This document shows, piece after piece, positions 2,997-60,292 of a DNA stretch of 64,000 nucleotides. Made by a program: the position numbers and the translations under genes. The stretch lies in assembly GCF_044324875.1 (NCBI RefSeq), contig NZ_CP172185.1, one strand, 5' to 3'. The stretch comes from Escherichia coli. GTDB lineage: Bacteria; Pseudomonadota; Gammaproteobacteria; Enterobacterales; Enterobacteriaceae. Every line of letters begins with the position of its first letter. Positions within the stretch are counted from its first letter, which is position 1. Below the pieces are notes generated by a model that was not told where the DNA came from, ran no database searches, and worked only from the letters and a program-made list of their open reading frames with translations.

Positions 2997-3304
2997 GATT
3001 TATTCCTTTGCTGCATCTGTGTGCCTTTATTGCTACCTAAGTGTAAAGGCTACGGAGGATTTATCCACGACAGATTTTGAGATGGTGGCAAACAACTCTG
3101 TTTAAACTCTGATACACGGATTATTGGGTTGTATCTGATGTAAATGCGATCCTGAATAAAAATCGCCCTTGCAAATCAACAAAATATAGCCAATTTGCTT
3201 AAAAGCTCTGCAAACGGTCGAAATAGCGCAGAAAATTACGTTTTGCCTCTTGCCACCTTCCCACTCTGCCGCTAATATTCGTCCCCGTTGTCACCTACAA
3301 CGTT

Positions 3305-3381
3305 GCGTTCATAGCTCAGTTGGTTAGAGCACCACCTTGACATGGTGGGGGTCGTTGGTTCGAGTCCAATTGAACGCACCA
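3305..3381 (+). tRNA. valV: tRNA-Val (GAC)
   Basis: GCGTTCATAGCTCAGTTGGTTAGAGCACCACCTTGACATGGTGG...CGCACCA; cloverleaf with GAC anticodon and CCA end. Confidence 0.93.
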
Positions 3382-51044: not shown

Positions 51045-52025
51045 CTAACGTCCTGCTTTTAACAATAACCAGATAAACACCGGCGCACCCAACGTTGCGG
51101 TGACCACGCCAATAGGCAGCTCTGCGGCAGCTAATGCCAGGCGCGCTACAACATCGGCCAGCAGCAATGCGCTCGCCCCTGCCAGCGCGCAGCCGGGAAG
51201 TAATACGCGATGATCGGTCAAACCACATAACCGGAGAATATGTGGGATCACCAGACCAATAAAGCCGATAGCACCCGCCAACGCCACACTGACGCCAACC
51301 ATCCAGCCGGTCGCTGCCACCAGCACATTGCGCCAGAACCACAGGGGTAAACCCAGTTGCCGCGCCGAGATCTCGCCAAGTGCTAACATATTCATCGGCC
51401 TGGACTGACAACAGATCCACAACAACACGGGGATCAATGCCAGCATCAGCCAGCTTTGCCGCCAGTCTACGCCGCCAAAACCGCCCATCATCCAGTACAT
51501 CAGCTGACGTAAATCAACAGAGGTGGAAAAGTAGATAGCCCACGTCATTAGTGCGCTACAGATAATCCCTAATGCAACGCCAGCCAGCAATAACCGACTG
51601 GTCGAAAGATGACGACGGGCGAAACGTAAGAGTATTAAAGTGATGATAAGCGCGCCAGCAATCGCACACAGCCCCAGCGCCCAGTTGGGGAGTTGCCCTT
51701 GCCCAAGCAATACAGCGGCGATAAGCCCCACGCCTGCGCCATTAGAGACGCCAAGTAGTCCAGGTTCTGCCAGAGGATTTTCAAATAACGCCTGCATTAC
51801 AGCGCCGGATATAGCCAACGCCGCACCAACCAGCAATACAGCCAGCGTACGTGGCAGGCGAATCTGCCAGACGAACAGTTCGCCTCGAGGAGAAAACCAG
51901 TCACCTGGCGAGATCCATTGTTCACCGGCGCAAAGGCTTAAGAGAAGCGCCAGCAGCATCAAAACTGACAGGCATAATAACCAGCGAATATTTTGTCGCT
52001 GTTGTTGGCGGGCAAGTGTCAGCAT
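51045..52025 (-). CDS. btuC: vitamin B12 ABC transporter permease
   Basis: 326-aa polytopic ORF. Confidence 0.92.
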
Positions 52026-52214: not shown

Positions 52215-52610
52215 TCATTCGTCCCCTTCTTTCTCTTTGTTCTGTTGAACGCTAATTGCGACACACGTAGCAATCAAATCTTTACATTTCTCCATATCTT
52301 CTGTCTTGCGCAACTTGATGCTTGCCACCGATTGTGGATTATCCGCTGTGGCACAATGCATTGTTATTTCAATGTCGTTTCGATGAAAGAGTCCCATAAT
52401 AGCTTTTGCAACCTCCGTCCCTTTTTCCGCGATATCAAAGATCAAAGCAAGTTTATACAAAATATCACCAGAAAAACACTCAACCCTGCTAAGACCAACA
52501 TCACATAATGAAAAATATTGCTCAACGTCCCCCTGGAGTTCGGGAGCACACACAATATCTATTTTTCCGTACTGGCCTGAATAAAAGTCACTATTAACTG
52601 TTTTTTTCAC
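52215..52610 (-). CDS. hypothetical protein coupled to the 3' end of int (unknown function)
   Basis: GTG at 52610 preceded by a perfect AAGGAGG SD; start overlaps the int stop by 17 nt (track ORF begins at an upstream TTG, 52631). Visibly AT-rich relative to flanks. Confidence 0.6.
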   Translation of the reverse strand: MKKTVNSDFYSGQYGKIDIVCAPELQGDVEQYFSLCDVGLSRVECFSGDILYKLALIFDIAEKGTEVAKAIMGLFHRNDIEITMHCATADNPQSVASIKLRKTEDMEKCKDLIATCVAISVQQNKEKEGDE

Positions 52611-53595
52611 AACATCCTCCTTCTTCAGCAATTGGATTAAACCTCACCGCATCCTGCAAATAATCCGGTGCAAGATGGGCATAAATCATCGTTGTCTGAA
52701 TCTTTGCGTGCCCCAGAATTTTCTGGAGCGTCAGAATATTGCCGCCGTTCATCATGAAATGACTGGCGAAAGTGTGGCGCAGCGCGTGAACGGCCTGCCC
52801 GTCAGGAATGGAAGGGGCAACCGCTTTTATCGAATCGCGCACCAGTGAATAATCCAGCGCCGGAAATACCAGCTTTCCGCCCCGTTTTTTAATTTTGTCA
52901 AACAGGCTTTCAGAAATTGGAACAGTCCGGTTTTTACTGTTTTTGGTTCTGGAAAATGTGATCCGGGAATGCAGAACGCGGCGCTGTTCAAGTGCCACCA
53001 CCTCACCCCATCGCGCCCCGGTAGATAAAAGAATTTCAGTAGCTAGCCGTTCGTCGGGATGCTCTACCAGAACGTCAAGCAGCTGGAGGCACTCCTGCCT
53101 GTTCAGATACCCCATTTCGCGCTCGCTGACCTTCATCCCTTTCAGTCCGCTAACAGGGTTATCATTCTGGAAGTGACCGGATGAGATGAGTGCGGAAAAC
53201 ATCGCGCTAAGCGCACCAACCTCGCGGTTTATGGTACTTGGCTGAATCCCCTCCTCCGCTCTTGCCACGCGTAATTCCGTTAACGTGGTGGCGTTGACGT
53301 TGTTAACACGCGGATCCCCCATCGCTTCACACACGCGCTGTAATTTGAGGCGTGTGTTCCACCCCGATTTCATCAGTTGCCCGTGAAACTTCCACCATAA
53401 TTCGATAAGTTCGGACAACGAACGGCGATCGGTCGGCGCACTGTTCCATGCGTTATTTTGGTGTTGAGCTAAAACCCAGCGTTCGAACTGGATAGCCTCC
53501 GACTTTGTTTTGAACTTTTTACGAATGCGTTTACCTTTGCGCCCATCAGGACGCATATCAACCATGTAGCCACCAGGGATTGATTTTATGCTCAT
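52594..53595 (-). CDS. int: tyrosine-type site-specific integrase (P2-like)
   Basis: C-terminal HALRHTFASHF...LGHAKIQTTMIYAHL catalytic region; start set at MSIKSIPGGY. Confidence 0.9.
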   Translation of the reverse strand: MSIKSIPGGYMVDMRPDGRKGKRIRKKFKTKSEAIQFERWVLAQHQNNAWNSAPTDRRSLSELIELWWKFHGQLMKSGWNTRLKLQRVCEAMGDPRVNNVNATTLTELRVARAEEGIQPSTINREVGALSAMFSALISSGHFQNDNPVSGLKGMKVSEREMGYLNRQECLQLLDVLVEHPDERLATEILLSTGARWGEVVALEQRRVLHSRITFSRTKNSKNRTVPISESLFDKIKKRGGKLVFPALDYSLVRDSIKAVAPSIPDGQAVHALRHTFASHFMMNGGNILTLQKILGHAKIQTTMIYAHLAPDYLQDAVRFNPIAEEGGCCEKNS

Positions 53596-53644
53596 TGGCA
53601 TACCCCCAGCGTCACAAGCCCACCGTGCCCCCAGCGTTCCATAA

Positions 53645-53953
53645 TCAGCCGTGCAGTGTGCCAGTCTTGCGGACTTTTTGAGAAGGTGATGTGCTTTCTG
53701 GCCCATCAGGGGAGAGAGTCGGGCTGATCTGCCCAGCAGCCTCGTTTGTTTTTCCCGTCATGAGCCAATTCATGTACTTAAAAAAACGAGGATGATTAAC
53801 AATCTTGACGAGAGCTTCGCCGCCGACATTCTCAATCCGACCTGTCTCATAACGGCGTAGAGTACCGATAGGTACATCAATCAGTTCACAAAACTCTTCA
53901 CGCGTTAACCCTTCCGACTCACGAATTACTCTGATTTTTTCACCAATAAACAT
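53645..53953 (-). CDS. P2 C-type immunity repressor
   Basis: 102-aa HTH protein immediately upstream of and co-oriented with int, divergent from the early operon. Confidence 0.7.
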   Translation of the reverse strand: MFIGEKIRVIRESEGLTREEFCELIDVPIGTLRRYETGRIENVGGEALVKIVNHPRFFKYMNWLMTGKTNEAAGQISPTLSPDGPESTSPSQKVRKTGTLHG

Positions 53954-53975
53954 TGACAGTGTTCCTATCAGTACA

Positions 53976-54018
53976 GTATTCTTGATTTCAAGGTGTACTT
54001 ATAAGTACACAAGAATAC
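53976..54018. promoter_or_regulatory. operator/promoter region between repressor and early operon
   Basis: Perfect 18-bp palindrome GTGTACTTATAAGTACAC (53993..54010) flanked by gtattcttg / caagaatac; TTGACA at 53954..53959. Confidence 0.6.
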
Positions 54019-54937: not shown

Positions 54938-55180
54938 ATGAAAAGAGCCTACAAAGAAATCGCTAACGACATACTTCAGAATTATCACCTAACCCTTGCA
55001 AACGAGGGTGTCGCCTATGATGAGCAATCGTTCCGCGCAATGCAGGGTGGGATTCTTGGGCTGTATATCGCCGCCACAGCCAGCGGCGACCTCGAAGCGC
55101 TGGCAGAATTAAAGGTTATCTATCCGAAAGAACTTGGCGAAGACCTGATTAAACCCTATCTCATTGAGGAGCTGGCATGA
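54938..55180 (+). CDS. hypothetical early protein
   Basis: Start at second ATG (MKRAYKEIAND) with gagagg RBS; longer ORF from 54923 possible. Confidence 0.5.
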   Translation: MKRAYKEIANDILQNYHLTLANEGVAYDEQSFRAMQGGILGLYIAATASGDLEALAELKVIYPKELGEDLIKPYLIEELA

Positions 55181-55302
55181 ATATTCTTATCTCGTGGTTA
55201 ATTCTCATCCTCGCCATTATTTGCGCGGTGGGAATCATGCGAATTATTAACGGCATTAAAACCATCGAATCATTATTTACTGGCGACAAGCGCCATAAAT
55301 AA
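55177..55302 (+). CDS. 41-aa hydrophobic micro-protein
   Basis: ATGA overlap with the preceding stop; MNILISWLILILAIICAVGIMRIINGIKTIESLFTGDKRHK; not in the ORF track (below length cut-off). Confidence 0.4.
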   Translation: MNILISWLILILAIICAVGIMRIINGIKTIESLFTGDKRHK

Positions 55303-55382
55303 ATAACCGGAAATTACCAGAAAGCAAGAAAACATCCGCAACGGCGGAGGGATTCCCTTACGCCTGAAATAAGGAGCAGCGA

Positions 55383-55847: not shown

Positions 55848-56333
55848 TTAGCGGGAAGCGCCAACCGTAAGGCTGGCAATGATTTTTTCGGAGAGTGAGA
55901 GAGATTCGCGATGATTAAGACCAAGAGCAGCACAAGCTTTATTGCGCGCCGGGTTGTCCATGCATTCAAGCACCGGAGAGTCCTGCTTCTCAATTTCCAC
56001 CAGTCGCGCCAGCAACACCTCCGTGCTGAGACCGTCGCTTTCAGTAATCAGGACGTTATAGCGATGAGCCTGTTCTTTTGCAGCCTGAGCGCGTCGCCCA
56101 AATTTCCAGGCGATATTGCAGCCACTAAGCACAGCCACGATACCACCCAGCAACCAACTGAAATTGCTGTCTGCAAACACAGTAGCCCCAGACGTAAGGA
56201 TGACAGCATTAATCACCGTATCCATACGGCGGTTAAACACCTCCGAAATATGTTCAAGCCAGTAACTGTTCCAGAGACGAAACATGACCTCGTGTCGCCG
56301 TTCGGCATGATTTTCAGTTGGTTGTCTGTTCAT
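55848..56333 (-). CDS. 2-TM hairpin membrane protein encoded antisense to the early operon
   Basis: 161-aa ORF with AGGAGGG SD 10 nt upstream of the ATG; two adjacent hydrophobic helices (TVINAVILTSGATVFA / WLLGGIVAVLSGCNIAW) flanked by charged helices. Confidence 0.6.
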   Translation of the reverse strand: MNRQPTENHAERRHEVMFRLWNSYWLEHISEVFNRRMDTVINAVILTSGATVFADSNFSWLLGGIVAVLSGCNIAWKFGRRAQAAKEQAHRYNVLITESDGLSTEVLLARLVEIEKQDSPVLECMDNPARNKACAALGLNHRESLSLSEKIIASLTVGASR

Positions 56334-57131: not shown

Positions 57132-57454
57132 GCAATCACCATGTACACACAAAAAAACCGCTTGCAACAACAAACCGGAACAGGGTACGCTTCCCCCGCA
57201 CCTCATAAAGCGGGTGCCGGGTTTCGCAGCCTGCTGACTAGCAAAGCGCACAACCGCGCCAGCGGTTTTTTTGTGCGTACTGTATTGCCACGTCTTTTTC
57301 GCATCAGAATTATGGTGGGGCGTACGGGGCCGACTTCGGTCGGGCCGGTTTCTTCGTTTGCCGGTGTTGAGAACCCCGTACGTCTCGCCACCCCGAGATT
57401 CTCAACTCTGGTTGGTGAGTATCCAAAAACTCACAAACGAAGAGGCCAAACACC

Positions 57455-57673
57455 ATGGCAAACCGCAAACAGCGCCGCGCTATCGCTGCGCAGCGTCACA
57501 TCCAGACCGAAATCAACCGCAGACTCTTCCGCGCCCACAACATCGCGCGAATCATGCACGCCAACATGCTGCATGAACGCAGTAACGCGTTATCAAACCT
57601 CTATTCCGCTTCCGTTTTCAGCTATCTGGCGGACGACCTGCGCGAGCTGCAAGACCTCATTAACCAGCACTGA
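57455..57673 (+). CDS. hypothetical protein
   Basis: 72-aa ORF with aagagg RBS. Confidence 0.5.
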   Translation: MANRKQRRAIAAQRHIQTEINRRLFRAHNIARIMHANMLHERSNALSNLYSASVFSYLADDLRELQDLINQH

Positions 57674-58117: not shown

Positions 58118-60292
58118 ATGGAGTTCGTCAGAGACTGGCAAAAACCGCGCCCCGCTATCGGGCGCGAAGGCTTACCCGTACCTGAAACCGCACTGGATAC
58201 CATCCTGAAGTGTTACCGCGCGGACGAAGAGCGCGCCCTGAACGCTGAAGAGCAGGGTCATCCGCTTGCGGGCACAACCATCGGTAACGCGATCGACAAG
58301 TGGGAAGGCGCACAGGAGCGCCAGGAAGAGGCCATCACGCTCACACAGGAAGCGAAGAGACGCCCACCCACCCTCATTGAGGAAACCCTCAAAGAGCTGG
58401 ACACCCTGCCAAAGTGGTTGAGGCTGCCACTGATTAAGTACCTGAACTTCTTAAGGCGCAAACAGGAGGACGAACAGCAGAAAGGCAAGCGCGGCAAGGA
58501 CACCCGCAAATATGAGCGCTTCCTGAAAAACGGCATCCCCGCACGTCTTCGCCGTATTCGTGAGATTAACGCTCGCTTTGCACCGTTAAGTTTTCAGGCC
58601 GCTGCCATGCGCGAGAGTCTGGAAGAGTTAATCACACTGCCGAACCTGAGCCGTGAACGCATCCAGAAAATAGCCGTACTGCTTGCCAGCGCCGTTAAAA
58701 TGCATCTTGCCGACGCAATGGACAAGGCCCGCGAAATAACAGGGAACGACAAAGACGACAACCTGAACAACTGGCTGATTGCCTACCAGTATATTGGTCG
58801 CCGTGTCCTGAAGCTGGGGATCACCCCACCATACTGGAGCGCCCTTGAACTCCGTCCCGACCGCAGAAGCCCCCCGGACCTGACACTGGTACCGGGCGCT
58901 GTTTTGCGCCTGAACGACGCCGAATGGTGGAATAAAAAACTTCGCCAGATGCACGACGTCTGGCGTGAGGAACTTTTACGTGCAGCGGGCCTTGTATCCC
59001 GCCAGACCTCCATTTATGTGAGCCGGGAAGCGCTGGCAGACTTCCGCGAGAAACAGGCCCGTACCCGCGATTTTCTCAAAGCGCACGACGTGGAGAACGA
59101 AGACGGCGAACGCATCAGCCTGGAAGATATCTACTACGCCAGTACATCCAACCCGCATAACCGCCGCAACGAGATGATGGCGTGCGTCAAGGGAATGGAG
59201 CTTATCGCACAGGAACGTGGCGACGTGGCCTTCTTCGTCACGGTCACAGCCCCGTCTCGTTTTCACAGCGTCACCGACGCCGGTACCCTTAACCCGAAAT
59301 ACAAAGGCACAACAGTAAAAGACGCCAGCGACTATCTGGTTTATAACTTCTTCGCCTCCGCCCGCAAACTCATCAAAAAAGAGAAGCGGGGCTGGTACGG
59401 CATTCGCACCGTGGAGCCTCACCACGACGGCACGCCCCACTGGCACATGCTGGTATTCACAAGCCCCGAGAACGAAGCGCGCATCACGGAAATCATGTGC
59501 AATGCCGCCATCCGTGAAGACCGTGCAGAGCTGGGCGACGACATTACCCCGCGCTTCAAGTGCGAGAAGATAGACCCCGAAAAAGGTACGCCAACCAGCT
59601 ACATCGCCACCTACATCGGCAAAGGCATTGACGCCGCCGCATTCGGCGACACGGATCCCAAAACAGGCAAACCGCCCGTTGACCACGAAAGCGGAAAACC
59701 TATGGCGGACACCGTGGAAAACGCCGTCGCCTGGGCACGCCTGCATCGCATTCGCCAGTTCCAGTTCTTTGGCCTTCCCTCACGTCAGGTGTGGCGCGAG
59801 TTCCGCCGCCTTGCCGGACAAATGGCACGCAACCCGAAGGGGCCGCAGGCACTGACCAACCCCAAAGCCGACGCCCTCCTTGTTGCAGCCGATACGGGGT
59901 GTTTTGCCAGCTACATCATGCATCAGGGCGGTGTGCTCATTCCCCGCAGTGAATATCTGGCCCGCACGGCCTACGTCACCGCAGAAGAGCCGAACAACTA
60001 CGGCGAGTTCCCCGACCGTATTTACGGTGTACGGATGCCGGAACTGGGCGATGAGTTCACGTTATGTACCCACCCGGAAGAGTGGAAAATCGTCAGAAAG
60101 GAACCGGAACCAGACAACCGCACGGGCGAGGGTTTTGACCTTCAGGGCGACCCCGTCGCCCCTTGGACTCGTGGCAATAACTGTCACCCTGACGAAAAAA
60201 ACAACCAACAACAGCACACAAACAGAACAGTCAGAGTGGGCAAAACTGCCCCCCTTACCCCCATCGTCGGACGGTTTTGTGAGCTGGTTTAA
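58118..60292 (+). CDS. replication initiation endonuclease (P2 gpA / 186 A family, rolling-circle)
   Basis: 724-aa ORF with caggagg RBS; HDGTPHWHMLVF metal-binding motif and YIATYIGKG active-site tyrosine region. Confidence 0.85.
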   Translation: MEFVRDWQKPRPAIGREGLPVPETALDTILKCYRADEERALNAEEQGHPLAGTTIGNAIDKWEGAQERQEEAITLTQEAKRRPPTLIEETLKELDTLPKWLRLPLIKYLNFLRRKQEDEQQKGKRGKDTRKYERFLKNGIPARLRRIREINARFAPLSFQAAAMRESLEELITLPNLSRERIQKIAVLLASAVKMHLADAMDKAREITGNDKDDNLNNWLIAYQYIGRRVLKLGITPPYWSALELRPDRRSPPDLTLVPGAVLRLNDAEWWNKKLRQMHDVWREELLRAAGLVSRQTSIYVSREALADFREKQARTRDFLKAHDVENEDGERISLEDIYYASTSNPHNRRNEMMACVKGMELIAQERGDVAFFVTVTAPSRFHSVTDAGTLNPKYKGTTVKDASDYLVYNFFASARKLIKKEKRGWYGIRTVEPHHDGTPHWHMLVFTSPENEARITEIMCNAAIREDRAELGDDITPRFKCEKIDPEKGTPTSYIATYIGKGIDAAAFGDTDPKTGKPPVDHESGKPMADTVENAVAWARLHRIRQFQFFGLPSRQVWREFRRLAGQMARNPKGPQALTNPKADALLVAADTGCFASYIMHQGGVLIPRSEYLARTAYVTAEEPNNYGEFPDRIYGVRMPELGDEFTLCTHPEEWKIVRKEPEPDNRTGEGFDLQGDPVAPWTRGNNCHPDEKNNQQQHTNRTVRVGKTAPLTPIVGRFCELV

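Follow-up and report, generated by a model that had tools for sequence, protein, structure and literature searches.

A Conserved, Predicted Membrane Micro-Protein Coupled to a DUF4754 Gene in the Early Operon of P88-Like Prophages

The Locus

The window analysed here, the whole stretch of 64,000 nucleotides of Escherichia coli DNA, contains a P2-family, P88-like prophage (Xuanwuvirus, Peduoviridae) that is inserted beside btuC and carries, among its early genes, a micro-ORF of 41 codons. The larger landmarks that place this micro-ORF within the prophage are the following.

51045-52025, minus strand: btuC, which adjoins the prophage
52594-53706, minus strand: integrase gene
53645-53953, minus strand: gene of an HTH repressor, divergent from the early operon
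53953-53982, plus strand: promoter-like site TTGACA-18-TATTCT (18-nt spacing), facing the early operon (consensus scan only)
58118-60292: gene of a gpA-like replication endonuclease

The promoter-like site occupies a position analogous to that of Pe of P2 and pR of 186, and rightward of it follow a Cox-like gene (phrog_11533 / phrog_575), a 71-aa ORF, a DUF4761 gene, a DUF4754 gene and the micro-ORF. On the 3' side of the micro-ORF come two small ORFs, a leftward 161-aa gene, a gene for a DNA-binding protein and an isrK/C4 RNA region, after which a gene for a 'derepression protein' and a 122-aa ORF lead up to the gpA-like endonuclease. The early operon runs rightward, and the micro-ORF sits in the part of it that separates the Cox-like gene from the replication gene A; gene order and family matches bear out the assignment to an early operon that had been made in an earlier note on this DNA, the operon being of the Pe type found in P2-family prophages. 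Phage P88, vB_EcoM-705R2, Citrobacter phage Shae_phiSM and the P2-like prophage of O157:H7 TW14359 share this gene order. The DUF4754 gene and the micro-ORF form the last gene pair ahead of the first intergenic gap of the operon, and the region downstream of the pair is a mosaic in which, across the loci compared below, the next gene is of at least five unrelated kinds.

The Micro-ORF and Its Upstream Partner

The features of the gene pair and of the sequence immediately following it are, in order along the window:

54938-55180, plus strand: upstream partner gene, encoding a divergent DUF4754 / phrog_2549 protein of 80 aa (PHROGs match, AF2 model)
55166-55171, plus strand: Shine-Dalgarno sequence GAGGAG, 5 nt before the ATG and within the last codons of the upstream gene
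55177-55180, plus strand: ATGA start/stop overlap, a signature of termination-reinitiation coupling
55177-55302, plus strand: micro-protein gene, ATG, 41 codons, TAA, of the P88 gp07 / WP_029399920.1 family
55183-55239, plus strand: codons 3-21, predicted transmembrane helix ILISWLILILAIICAVGIM (hydropathy, AF2 model)
55240-55299, plus strand: codons 22-41, basic tail RIINGIKTIESLFTGDKRHK, predicted to be cytoplasmic (charge count)
55335-55348: hairpin TCCGC-AACG-GCGGA with a stem of 5 bp and a loop of 4 nt, conserved and always followed by GG

Translation of the micro-ORF yields the 41-aa peptide MNILISWLILILAIICAVGIMRIINGIKTIESLFTGDKRHK. The Kyte-Doolittle hydropathy of residues 3-21 averages 2.99, the N-terminal 21 residues carry no charge at all, and the last 20 residues contain five K/R and one H versus two D/E. 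In the AF2 model residues 3-34 constitute one unbroken helix. With fewer than 50 residues and a single predicted transmembrane helix, the micro-protein has the size and build of a small single-pass membrane protein. The earlier note had described a hydrophobic micro-protein of 41 codons with one transmembrane helix; the frame reads from ATG to TAA as described, and hydropathy and structure model agree in predicting a single helix.

How is the micro-ORF connected to its neighbour? The upstream gene ends in GCA TGA, and the final A of the alanine codon together with the TG of the stop codon makes up the start codon of the micro-ORF, confirming the ATGA overlap that had been claimed for 55177-55180. 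A purine-rich, Shine-Dalgarno-like run is found at positions -8 to -13 in every DUF4754 subtype, despite the differing C-terminal DUF4754 residues that are encoded there. Ribosomes that end translation of DUF4754 would be expected to reinitiate at the overlapping ATG, aided by the Shine-Dalgarno sequence within the DUF4754 coding sequence. Coupling of the ATGA type has reportedly been described by Huber et al. 2019.

The 80-aa product of the upstream gene matches phrog_2549 with an E-value of 7e-17 and scores 23.2 bits against Pfam DUF4754, which is under the cut-off of 27. Its AF2 model (pLDDT 81.8) is a confident three-helix bundle with a floppy C-terminus, the last 20 residues being modelled at low confidence. 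A Foldseek comparison of this model with the PDB returned generic helical bundles only, all at E > 1, and no informative neighbour.

Conservation and Selection

For a given ATG, a frame of 41 codons remains open by chance with a probability of (61/64)^41 or about 0.14, which is unremarkable alone, and the micro-ORF stands above chance because its frame is conserved across loci and not because of its length. Conservation was evaluated in a set of 107 loci with a DUF4754 gene, drawn from IMG/VR contigs, from phage records and from genomes of E. coli and Salmonella. The check that the earlier note had proposed, conservation of the frame in related prophages, comes out in favour of the gene: the micro-ORF is intact and overlaps the DUF4754 gene by four nucleotides in all 107 loci, the overlap being ATGA in 106 of them and GTGA in the remaining one (L062), a swap between valid start codons, and it is the sole frame that is open in all 46 distinct DNA versions. 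The ratio pN/pS in the micro-ORF frame is 0.31 (44 distinct DNA versions; 0.21-0.43 by bootstrap over codons, with none of 2000 replicates reaching 1) and is similar in its two parts, 0.29 in the helix and 0.33 in the tail. The other two forward frames give values of about 1.0 and 1.7, and 0.43, in line with expectation, is obtained in the antisense frame with shared third positions. Between the micro-ORFs of the window and of P88, pS is 0.745 and essentially saturated, and pN is 0.243. In the alignment, the variable columns number 18, 10 and 31 at codon positions 1, 2 and 3, respectively. Comparison of the loci demonstrates purifying selection on the frame, on the start position and on the amino-acid sequence, and the micro-ORF very probably encodes a real, translated membrane micro-protein.

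Which residues are retained? Among 102 distinct family members the most conserved positions are S6, W7, L10, A17, G19 and I20 in the helix and R22 just past it, and the window peptide carries this conserved core, S6-W7 ... A17-x-G19-I20-x-R22. A periodicity of conservation along one helical face, which would have pointed to the binding of a larger membrane protein, did not reach significance (P = 0.09). A divergent form from Salmonella, 50/53 aa long and 28% identical, has a longer N-terminus and a different polar tail and keeps the start within an ATGA overlap, the SW...AIxIVR core and the hydrophobic single-helix character. The far end of the tail is variable, and sizeable subfamilies swap the last 5-15 residues via frameshifts at A6 or T6 runs. 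These C-terminal 5-15 residues behave as dispensable or plastic, and since frameshifts replace them in sizeable subfamilies, the tail is excluded as a precise docking element.

Annotation, Family and Distribution

The reading as an early-operon membrane micro-protein that was put forward in the earlier note stands in that the coding frame is real, coupled by overlap and predicted to encode a single helix; it fails in calling the gene unannotated. In RefSeq genomes PGAP annotates precisely this CDS, under the accession WP_029399920.1, a hypothetical protein identical to the window peptide. The exact 41-aa sequence occurs on 995 contigs and has a UniProt entry, and close relatives carry the UniProt name 'Prophage membrane protein'. 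The homologue gp07 of P88 (YP_009113050.1, 37 aa), annotated 'membrane protein', is 59% identical to the window peptide, and a further homologue, WP_000021655.1, is a hypothetical protein of E. coli P2-like prophages including that of O157:H7. The genes of all three proteins resemble the window gene in following DUF4754 with an ATGA overlap and in the helix-plus-tail build of their products. Compared with P88 gp07, the window peptide falls into a 41-aa subclass with a C-terminal DKRHK extension, and compared with its relatives it has an unusually divergent DUF4754 partner, below the Pfam cut-off. In the record of Citrobacter phage Shae_phiSM and in the gene calls on Salmonella CP191473 the micro-ORF is omitted.

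A search with a profile of nine members recovered 127 protein clusters, down to E = 1e-5, in length classes of 37, 41 and 45 aa, and an exhaustive HMMER scan of 1.84 billion representative proteins gave 19 matches, all of them to the micro-protein family, which by these searches is real but narrow. A P88-type region of 261 nt matches 1391 of 5426 complete E. coli genomes, about a quarter, versus nine matches for the window's own 41-aa type. At the DNA level a 721-nt region of the window had no match among phage records, where homologues are found at the protein level only. Within the phage collection the micro-protein and DUF4754 are both confined to Xuanwuvirus-like phages of Escherichia and Citrobacter, and copies from Salmonella and Shigella genomes are present in the large protein collection. 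Across these collections, members of the family occur in no prophages other than P88-like ones (Xuanwuvirus), whose hosts are Escherichia, Citrobacter, Salmonella and Shigella. The window gene belongs to an already catalogued family without an assigned role and is at a small distance from known kinds.

The Downstream Hairpin

The hairpin lies 32 nt past the stop codon of the micro-ORF and 34 nt ahead of the next gene, and 98 of 106 loci have it despite differing in the genes that follow it. Its pairing is maintained in 99.4% of cells of the alignment (32 distinct sequences) versus 34-63% in slid controls, and compensatory changes from C-G to U-A are observed at two of the five pairs. Two further changes affect a single side of the stem and give G·U or U·G on the plus strand and mismatches on the minus strand. 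A T-rich run follows the hairpin on the minus strand only, there is no U-run on the plus strand, and a terminator scan reads the hairpin as a weak terminator on the minus strand, in the window as well as in P88. In this respect the element differs from tR1 of phage 186, as the hairpin follows the micro-ORF without a U-run on the plus strand.

The eight loci that lack the hairpin have, in its place, a second small hydrophobic ORF of 31 aa and a canonical hairpin-plus-T-run.

Searches for a Known Function

Profile searches with the micro-protein in Pfam, PHROGs, NCBIfam, PADLOC and PDB sequences gave no match, and nothing relevant was found in the literature searched on DUF4754, P88, Xuanwuvirus, the family accessions or the peptide sequence. 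Neither homology nor a structural match nor a published experiment ties the family to a function, and the earlier note's idea that small membrane peptides of early operons can be regulators or inhibitors is here no more than a suggestion. The micro-protein is absent from the ribosome-profiling supplements for O157:H7 Sakai, which says little because the prophage operon is repressed.

Four resemblances were considered and rejected. TatA and TatE have a similar architecture, a transmembrane helix followed by an amphipathic helix, and the NCBIfam model NF003393 aligns residues 4-33 with TatA positions 6-35 at 13.5 bits versus a cut-off of 104; none of the 19 family members matches Pfam Tat and the FG hinge is absent, and the likeness was treated as compositional similarity. 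A lipoprotein or a cleaved signal peptide was rejected in view of the missing charge before the hydrophobic stretch and the missing n-region, and for a lipoprotein also in view of Cys16, a position at which members of the family also have M, F, S, Y, I or A. Ten residues bear a local likeness to the C-terminal end of 186 Fil (IMRIIHSVKK versus IIRIVHFVIK), for which BLASTP gives no alignment at E <= 100. Finally, the Rfam family STnc250 (RF01409) overlaps the 3' end of the micro-ORF with 23.5 bits versus a threshold of 42; STnc250 is the mRNA of the small ORF ypfM (PMC2515195), and the resemblance is a coincidence because the two small ORFs end alike (...KRHK-TAA versus ...LRK-TAA).

What Might the Micro-Protein Do?

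The explanation towards which we lean, at slightly better than an even chance, is that the gene encodes a 41-aa single-pass inner-membrane micro-protein of a P88-like prophage, coupled to DUF4754, that modulates a host membrane protein during takeover. Modulation of a host membrane protein, considered by itself and argued from analogy, is a plausible assignment of somewhat less than even probability, and any one specific target would be a long shot. Production of the peptide would be confined to times when the C-type repressor is lifted, upon infection or induction, and would keep pace with that of DUF4754. Residues 1-21, which are uncharged, would cross the membrane with the N-terminus outside, leaving R22 and the basic tail in the cytoplasm. 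This N-out/C-in topology is suggested by the positive-inside rule, given an uncharged N-terminus, a nearly invariant R22 at the cytoplasmic boundary and a basic tail. Once inserted, the peptide may bind a larger inner-membrane protein through the helix and the juxtamembrane segment, the weakest step of the proposal and one taken over from analogous systems. The likely purpose would be host takeover early in lytic growth, for example by blocking division or another envelope function, or by excluding rival phages.

The analogous systems are small single-pass regulators of inner-membrane proteins such as AcrZ, MgtS, MgrB and, in Caulobacter, SidA; proteins of this build have reportedly been discussed as a group in more general terms. 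Like the micro-protein they are shorter than 50 residues and lack an enzymatic domain, their single helix sits at the very N-terminus and is followed by a short cytoplasmic tail that is charged, and by analogy theirs is the mode in which the peptide most plausibly works. They have no sequence relationship to the micro-protein, however, and are chromosomal, stress-regulated and expressed from their own promoters, whereas the micro-protein is the product of a coupled phage early gene.

A host-directed accessory role is favoured because the pair stands at the end of the first operon segment, where 186 has fil and dhr followed by tR1, and because the region downstream is mosaic. In 186 the genes fil, encoding a division inhibitor, and dhr, encoding an inhibitor of host replication, are small and mutually overlapping and close the first early-operon segment before tR1, and in P2 the corresponding place, after gene B, is occupied by a terminator. 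In contrast to what is predicted for the micro-protein, neither Fil (75 aa) nor Dhr (66 aa) is a transmembrane peptide, Dhr, which was compared by translation only, being a polar protein without a long hydrophobic stretch. The analogy is positional only, because there is no sequence similarity (for Fil by BLASTP).

A bolder extension, which we consider improbable, is that P88-like phages possess a host-takeover module of two genes that had gone unrecognised, DUF4754 and the micro-protein, whose products coupled translation would supply in constant proportion. The membrane peptide and the helical cytoplasmic protein would in that case target a host inner-membrane machine (for example the divisome, FtsH or a DNA-uptake route), and the downstream hairpin might delimit the first segment of the early operon, be it as a processing site, a termination site or a regulated 3' end of the RNA.

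Could DUF4754 itself be the binding partner? The peptide might serve as its membrane anchor, the tail holding the three-helix protein at the inner membrane, which would be compatible with modulation of a host membrane protein and is perhaps a special case of it. DUF4754 and the micro-ORF are never found apart, in 107 of 107 loci and with the same distribution in phage records; coupled translation favours equimolar synthesis in one place; and the low confidence of the C-terminal 20 residues in the DUF4754 model is what would be expected of a segment that folds on binding. Recombination speaks against an exclusive partnership, as a breakpoint lies exactly at the junction of DUF4754 and micro-ORF and a micro-protein gene of 100% DNA identity is found beside DUF4754 proteins just 38% identical to each other, with further mixed pairings such as that in locus L011. 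Because recombinants pair an identical peptide gene with DUF4754 genes that are only 38% identical, a strictly specific complex of DUF4754 and peptide becomes less likely. An AF2 model of DUF4754 fused to the peptide by a GS linker, computed with a paired alignment, showed no gain in confidence (pTM 0.43), which is a weak test, read from pTM and pLDDT, and in this model confidence at the DUF4754 C-terminus dropped to a pLDDT of about 30. Altogether we regard an anchor function as unlikely, with a chance of perhaps one in several.

Another reading by analogy is that the peptide acts in superinfection exclusion or blocks injection during lytic growth, barring DNA entry by later phages at the inner membrane. 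Early membrane proteins with such a role are Imm and Sp of T4, and a predicted single-pass inner-membrane peptide from an early operon would fit among them. The fast sequence turnover, the several subtypes and the mosaic tail are likewise typical of genes in phage-phage conflict. There is no likeness, however, to known exclusion proteins or PADLOC models, and repression in the lysogen makes the usual prophage-borne protection impossible, leaving this reading with a distinctly small probability.

Even less probable is a membrane-damaging toxin, type I toxin-like or holin-like, whose oligomers would depolarise the membrane and in this way arrest the host or time lysis. In architecture only, size, hydrophobic helix and charged C-terminal tail resemble Fst/Ldr, TisB and Hok. 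The known toxins Hok, Ldr/Fst, TisB, Ibs and ShoB are also small hydrophobic peptides with a charged tail, but without a family match to the micro-protein: none of the 19 family members matches Hok, Ldr, TisB, Ibs or any other Pfam toxin family at E <= 10, and NCBIfam yields nothing either. Nor is the genetic setting that of a toxin, as the micro-ORF is translationally coupled within a long operon and does not form a stand-alone locus. No Rfam antisense family matches, and the sole antisense promoter-like site (55243-55216) scores 9/12, which corresponds to chance frequency, has a -10 hexamer that is not conserved, and has no counterpart in P88. Moreover, early depolarisation would harm phage replication, and P2-family phages carry their lysis genes in the late region.

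It has further to be considered that the act of translation alone matters and that the peptide has no role of its own; ribosomes on the micro-ORF would then guard against Rho-dependent polarity or determine how the downstream hairpin folds. The conserved hairpin 32 nt downstream and the tolerance of the C-terminal residues to frameshifts would be in line with this, but purifying selection on the amino acids is strong and alike in helix and tail, the hydrophobic single helix is kept in the 28%-identical Salmonella form, and the hairpin at 55335 would lie beyond the reach of a ribosome that terminates at 55302, so that this reading is hardly to be believed. That the micro-ORF is open by chance and is no gene, for which it could be said that a 41-codon open frame is not rare in AT-rich sequence, has a negligible probability, being refuted, as far as sequence goes, by its presence in 107/107 loci, a pN/pS of 0.31 and its standing as the sole open frame.

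Significance

As it stands, the micro-ORF is one more conserved hypothetical small phage gene, ordinary but genuine. Gene callers miss it in some phage and Salmonella records, and the invariant four-nucleotide overlap with DUF4754 offers a simple annotation rule. If DUF4754 and the micro-protein were indeed to act as a two-gene module, this would be the first function for the family and would place a membrane-embedded member among the phage early host inhibitors. If it is true that the peptide modulates a host membrane protein, a phage example would join the short list of characterised bacterial membrane micro-proteins, and a role would be given to a gene pair that about one in four complete E. 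coli genomes carries, O157:H7 among them.

Mosaic Breakpoint and C-Terminal Variation of the Micro-Protein Gene

A mosaic breakpoint at 55175-55177 (loci L002 and L001) coincides exactly with the start of the 41-codon micro-ORF (55177-55302, plus strand). In four complete E. coli genomes the match to the window is 98-100% from base 55175 on, but the DUF4754 gene upstream of it is a different one (38% protein identity). Sizeable subfamilies of the micro-protein have frameshifted C-termini (45-aa forms), with the shifts originating at two kinds of homopolymer run, A6 and T6, around codons 28-34. Many database entries of the family are N-terminal fragments of 22-34 aa located at contig ends, suggesting that the micro-protein gene, or the sequence immediately behind it, is a frequent site of assembly breaks.

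Some records overlook the frame. Two related loci contain a homologous micro-ORF without annotation or gene call, and the version found in Salmonella is a divergent 50-aa form:
3250-3363 of the locus: micro-ORF of L005, Citrobacter phage Shae_phiSM
3240-3392 of the locus: micro-ORF of L103, Salmonella CP191473

A Conserved Hairpin Downstream of the Micro-ORF

Between the micro-ORF and the following gene lies a conserved hairpin:
55335-55348 (flanks 55321-55368): TCCGC-AACG-GCGGA followed by GG, with a 5-bp stem and a 4-nt loop

This TCCGC/GCGGA hairpin is kept in 98 of the 106 related loci despite differing downstream genes, and its stem shows compensatory changes from C-G to U-A at two pairs, with pairing in 99.4% of cells. 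On the minus strand the element scans as a weak terminator, but the wobble variants of the hairpin agree with the plus strand. In the locus comparison it was absent from the related loci L092-L099. Members of this subgroup have a second small hydrophobic ORF, MKNVKAIHTIATVWVIFQVSALIWLALKIWE (31 aa), 13 nt past the micro-ORF stop, and a canonical hairpin with a T-run follows this 31-aa ORF.

The region 55282-55357 also matches Rfam STnc250, which is the mRNA of the 19-codon ypfM ORF, albeit at 23.5 bits versus a gathering score of 42. This sub-threshold match comes from the resemblance between the ends of two small ORFs and was judged to be chance.

Other Genes and RNAs of the Prophage

Two further reading frames lie on the minus strand:
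52215-52631, minus strand: 138-aa ORF between btuC and the integrase gene
55848-56333, minus strand: 161-aa gene, phrog_6315, directed against the early operon

The 138-aa ORF overlaps the longest integrase frame, and in related prophages at btuC its position is occupied by two hypothetical genes. The 161-aa gene, which encodes a hydrophobic segment with a weak match to ATP-synt_I and a very weak SLATT-like match, is a candidate moron or accessory gene.

Farther along the window, three Rfam matches are found directly 5' of a gene for a 72-aa 'derepression protein':
57185-57237: c4 a1/b1 target family, weak match, sub-threshold
57198-57272: isrK, strong match, 64.7 bits
57308-57395: C4 antisense RNA, strong match, 79.2 bits
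57455-57673: 72-aa 'derepression protein' gene

Taken as a whole, 57185-57673 appears to be an antirepressor module under RNA control, of the immI type known from P1/P7, residing within a P2-family prophage.
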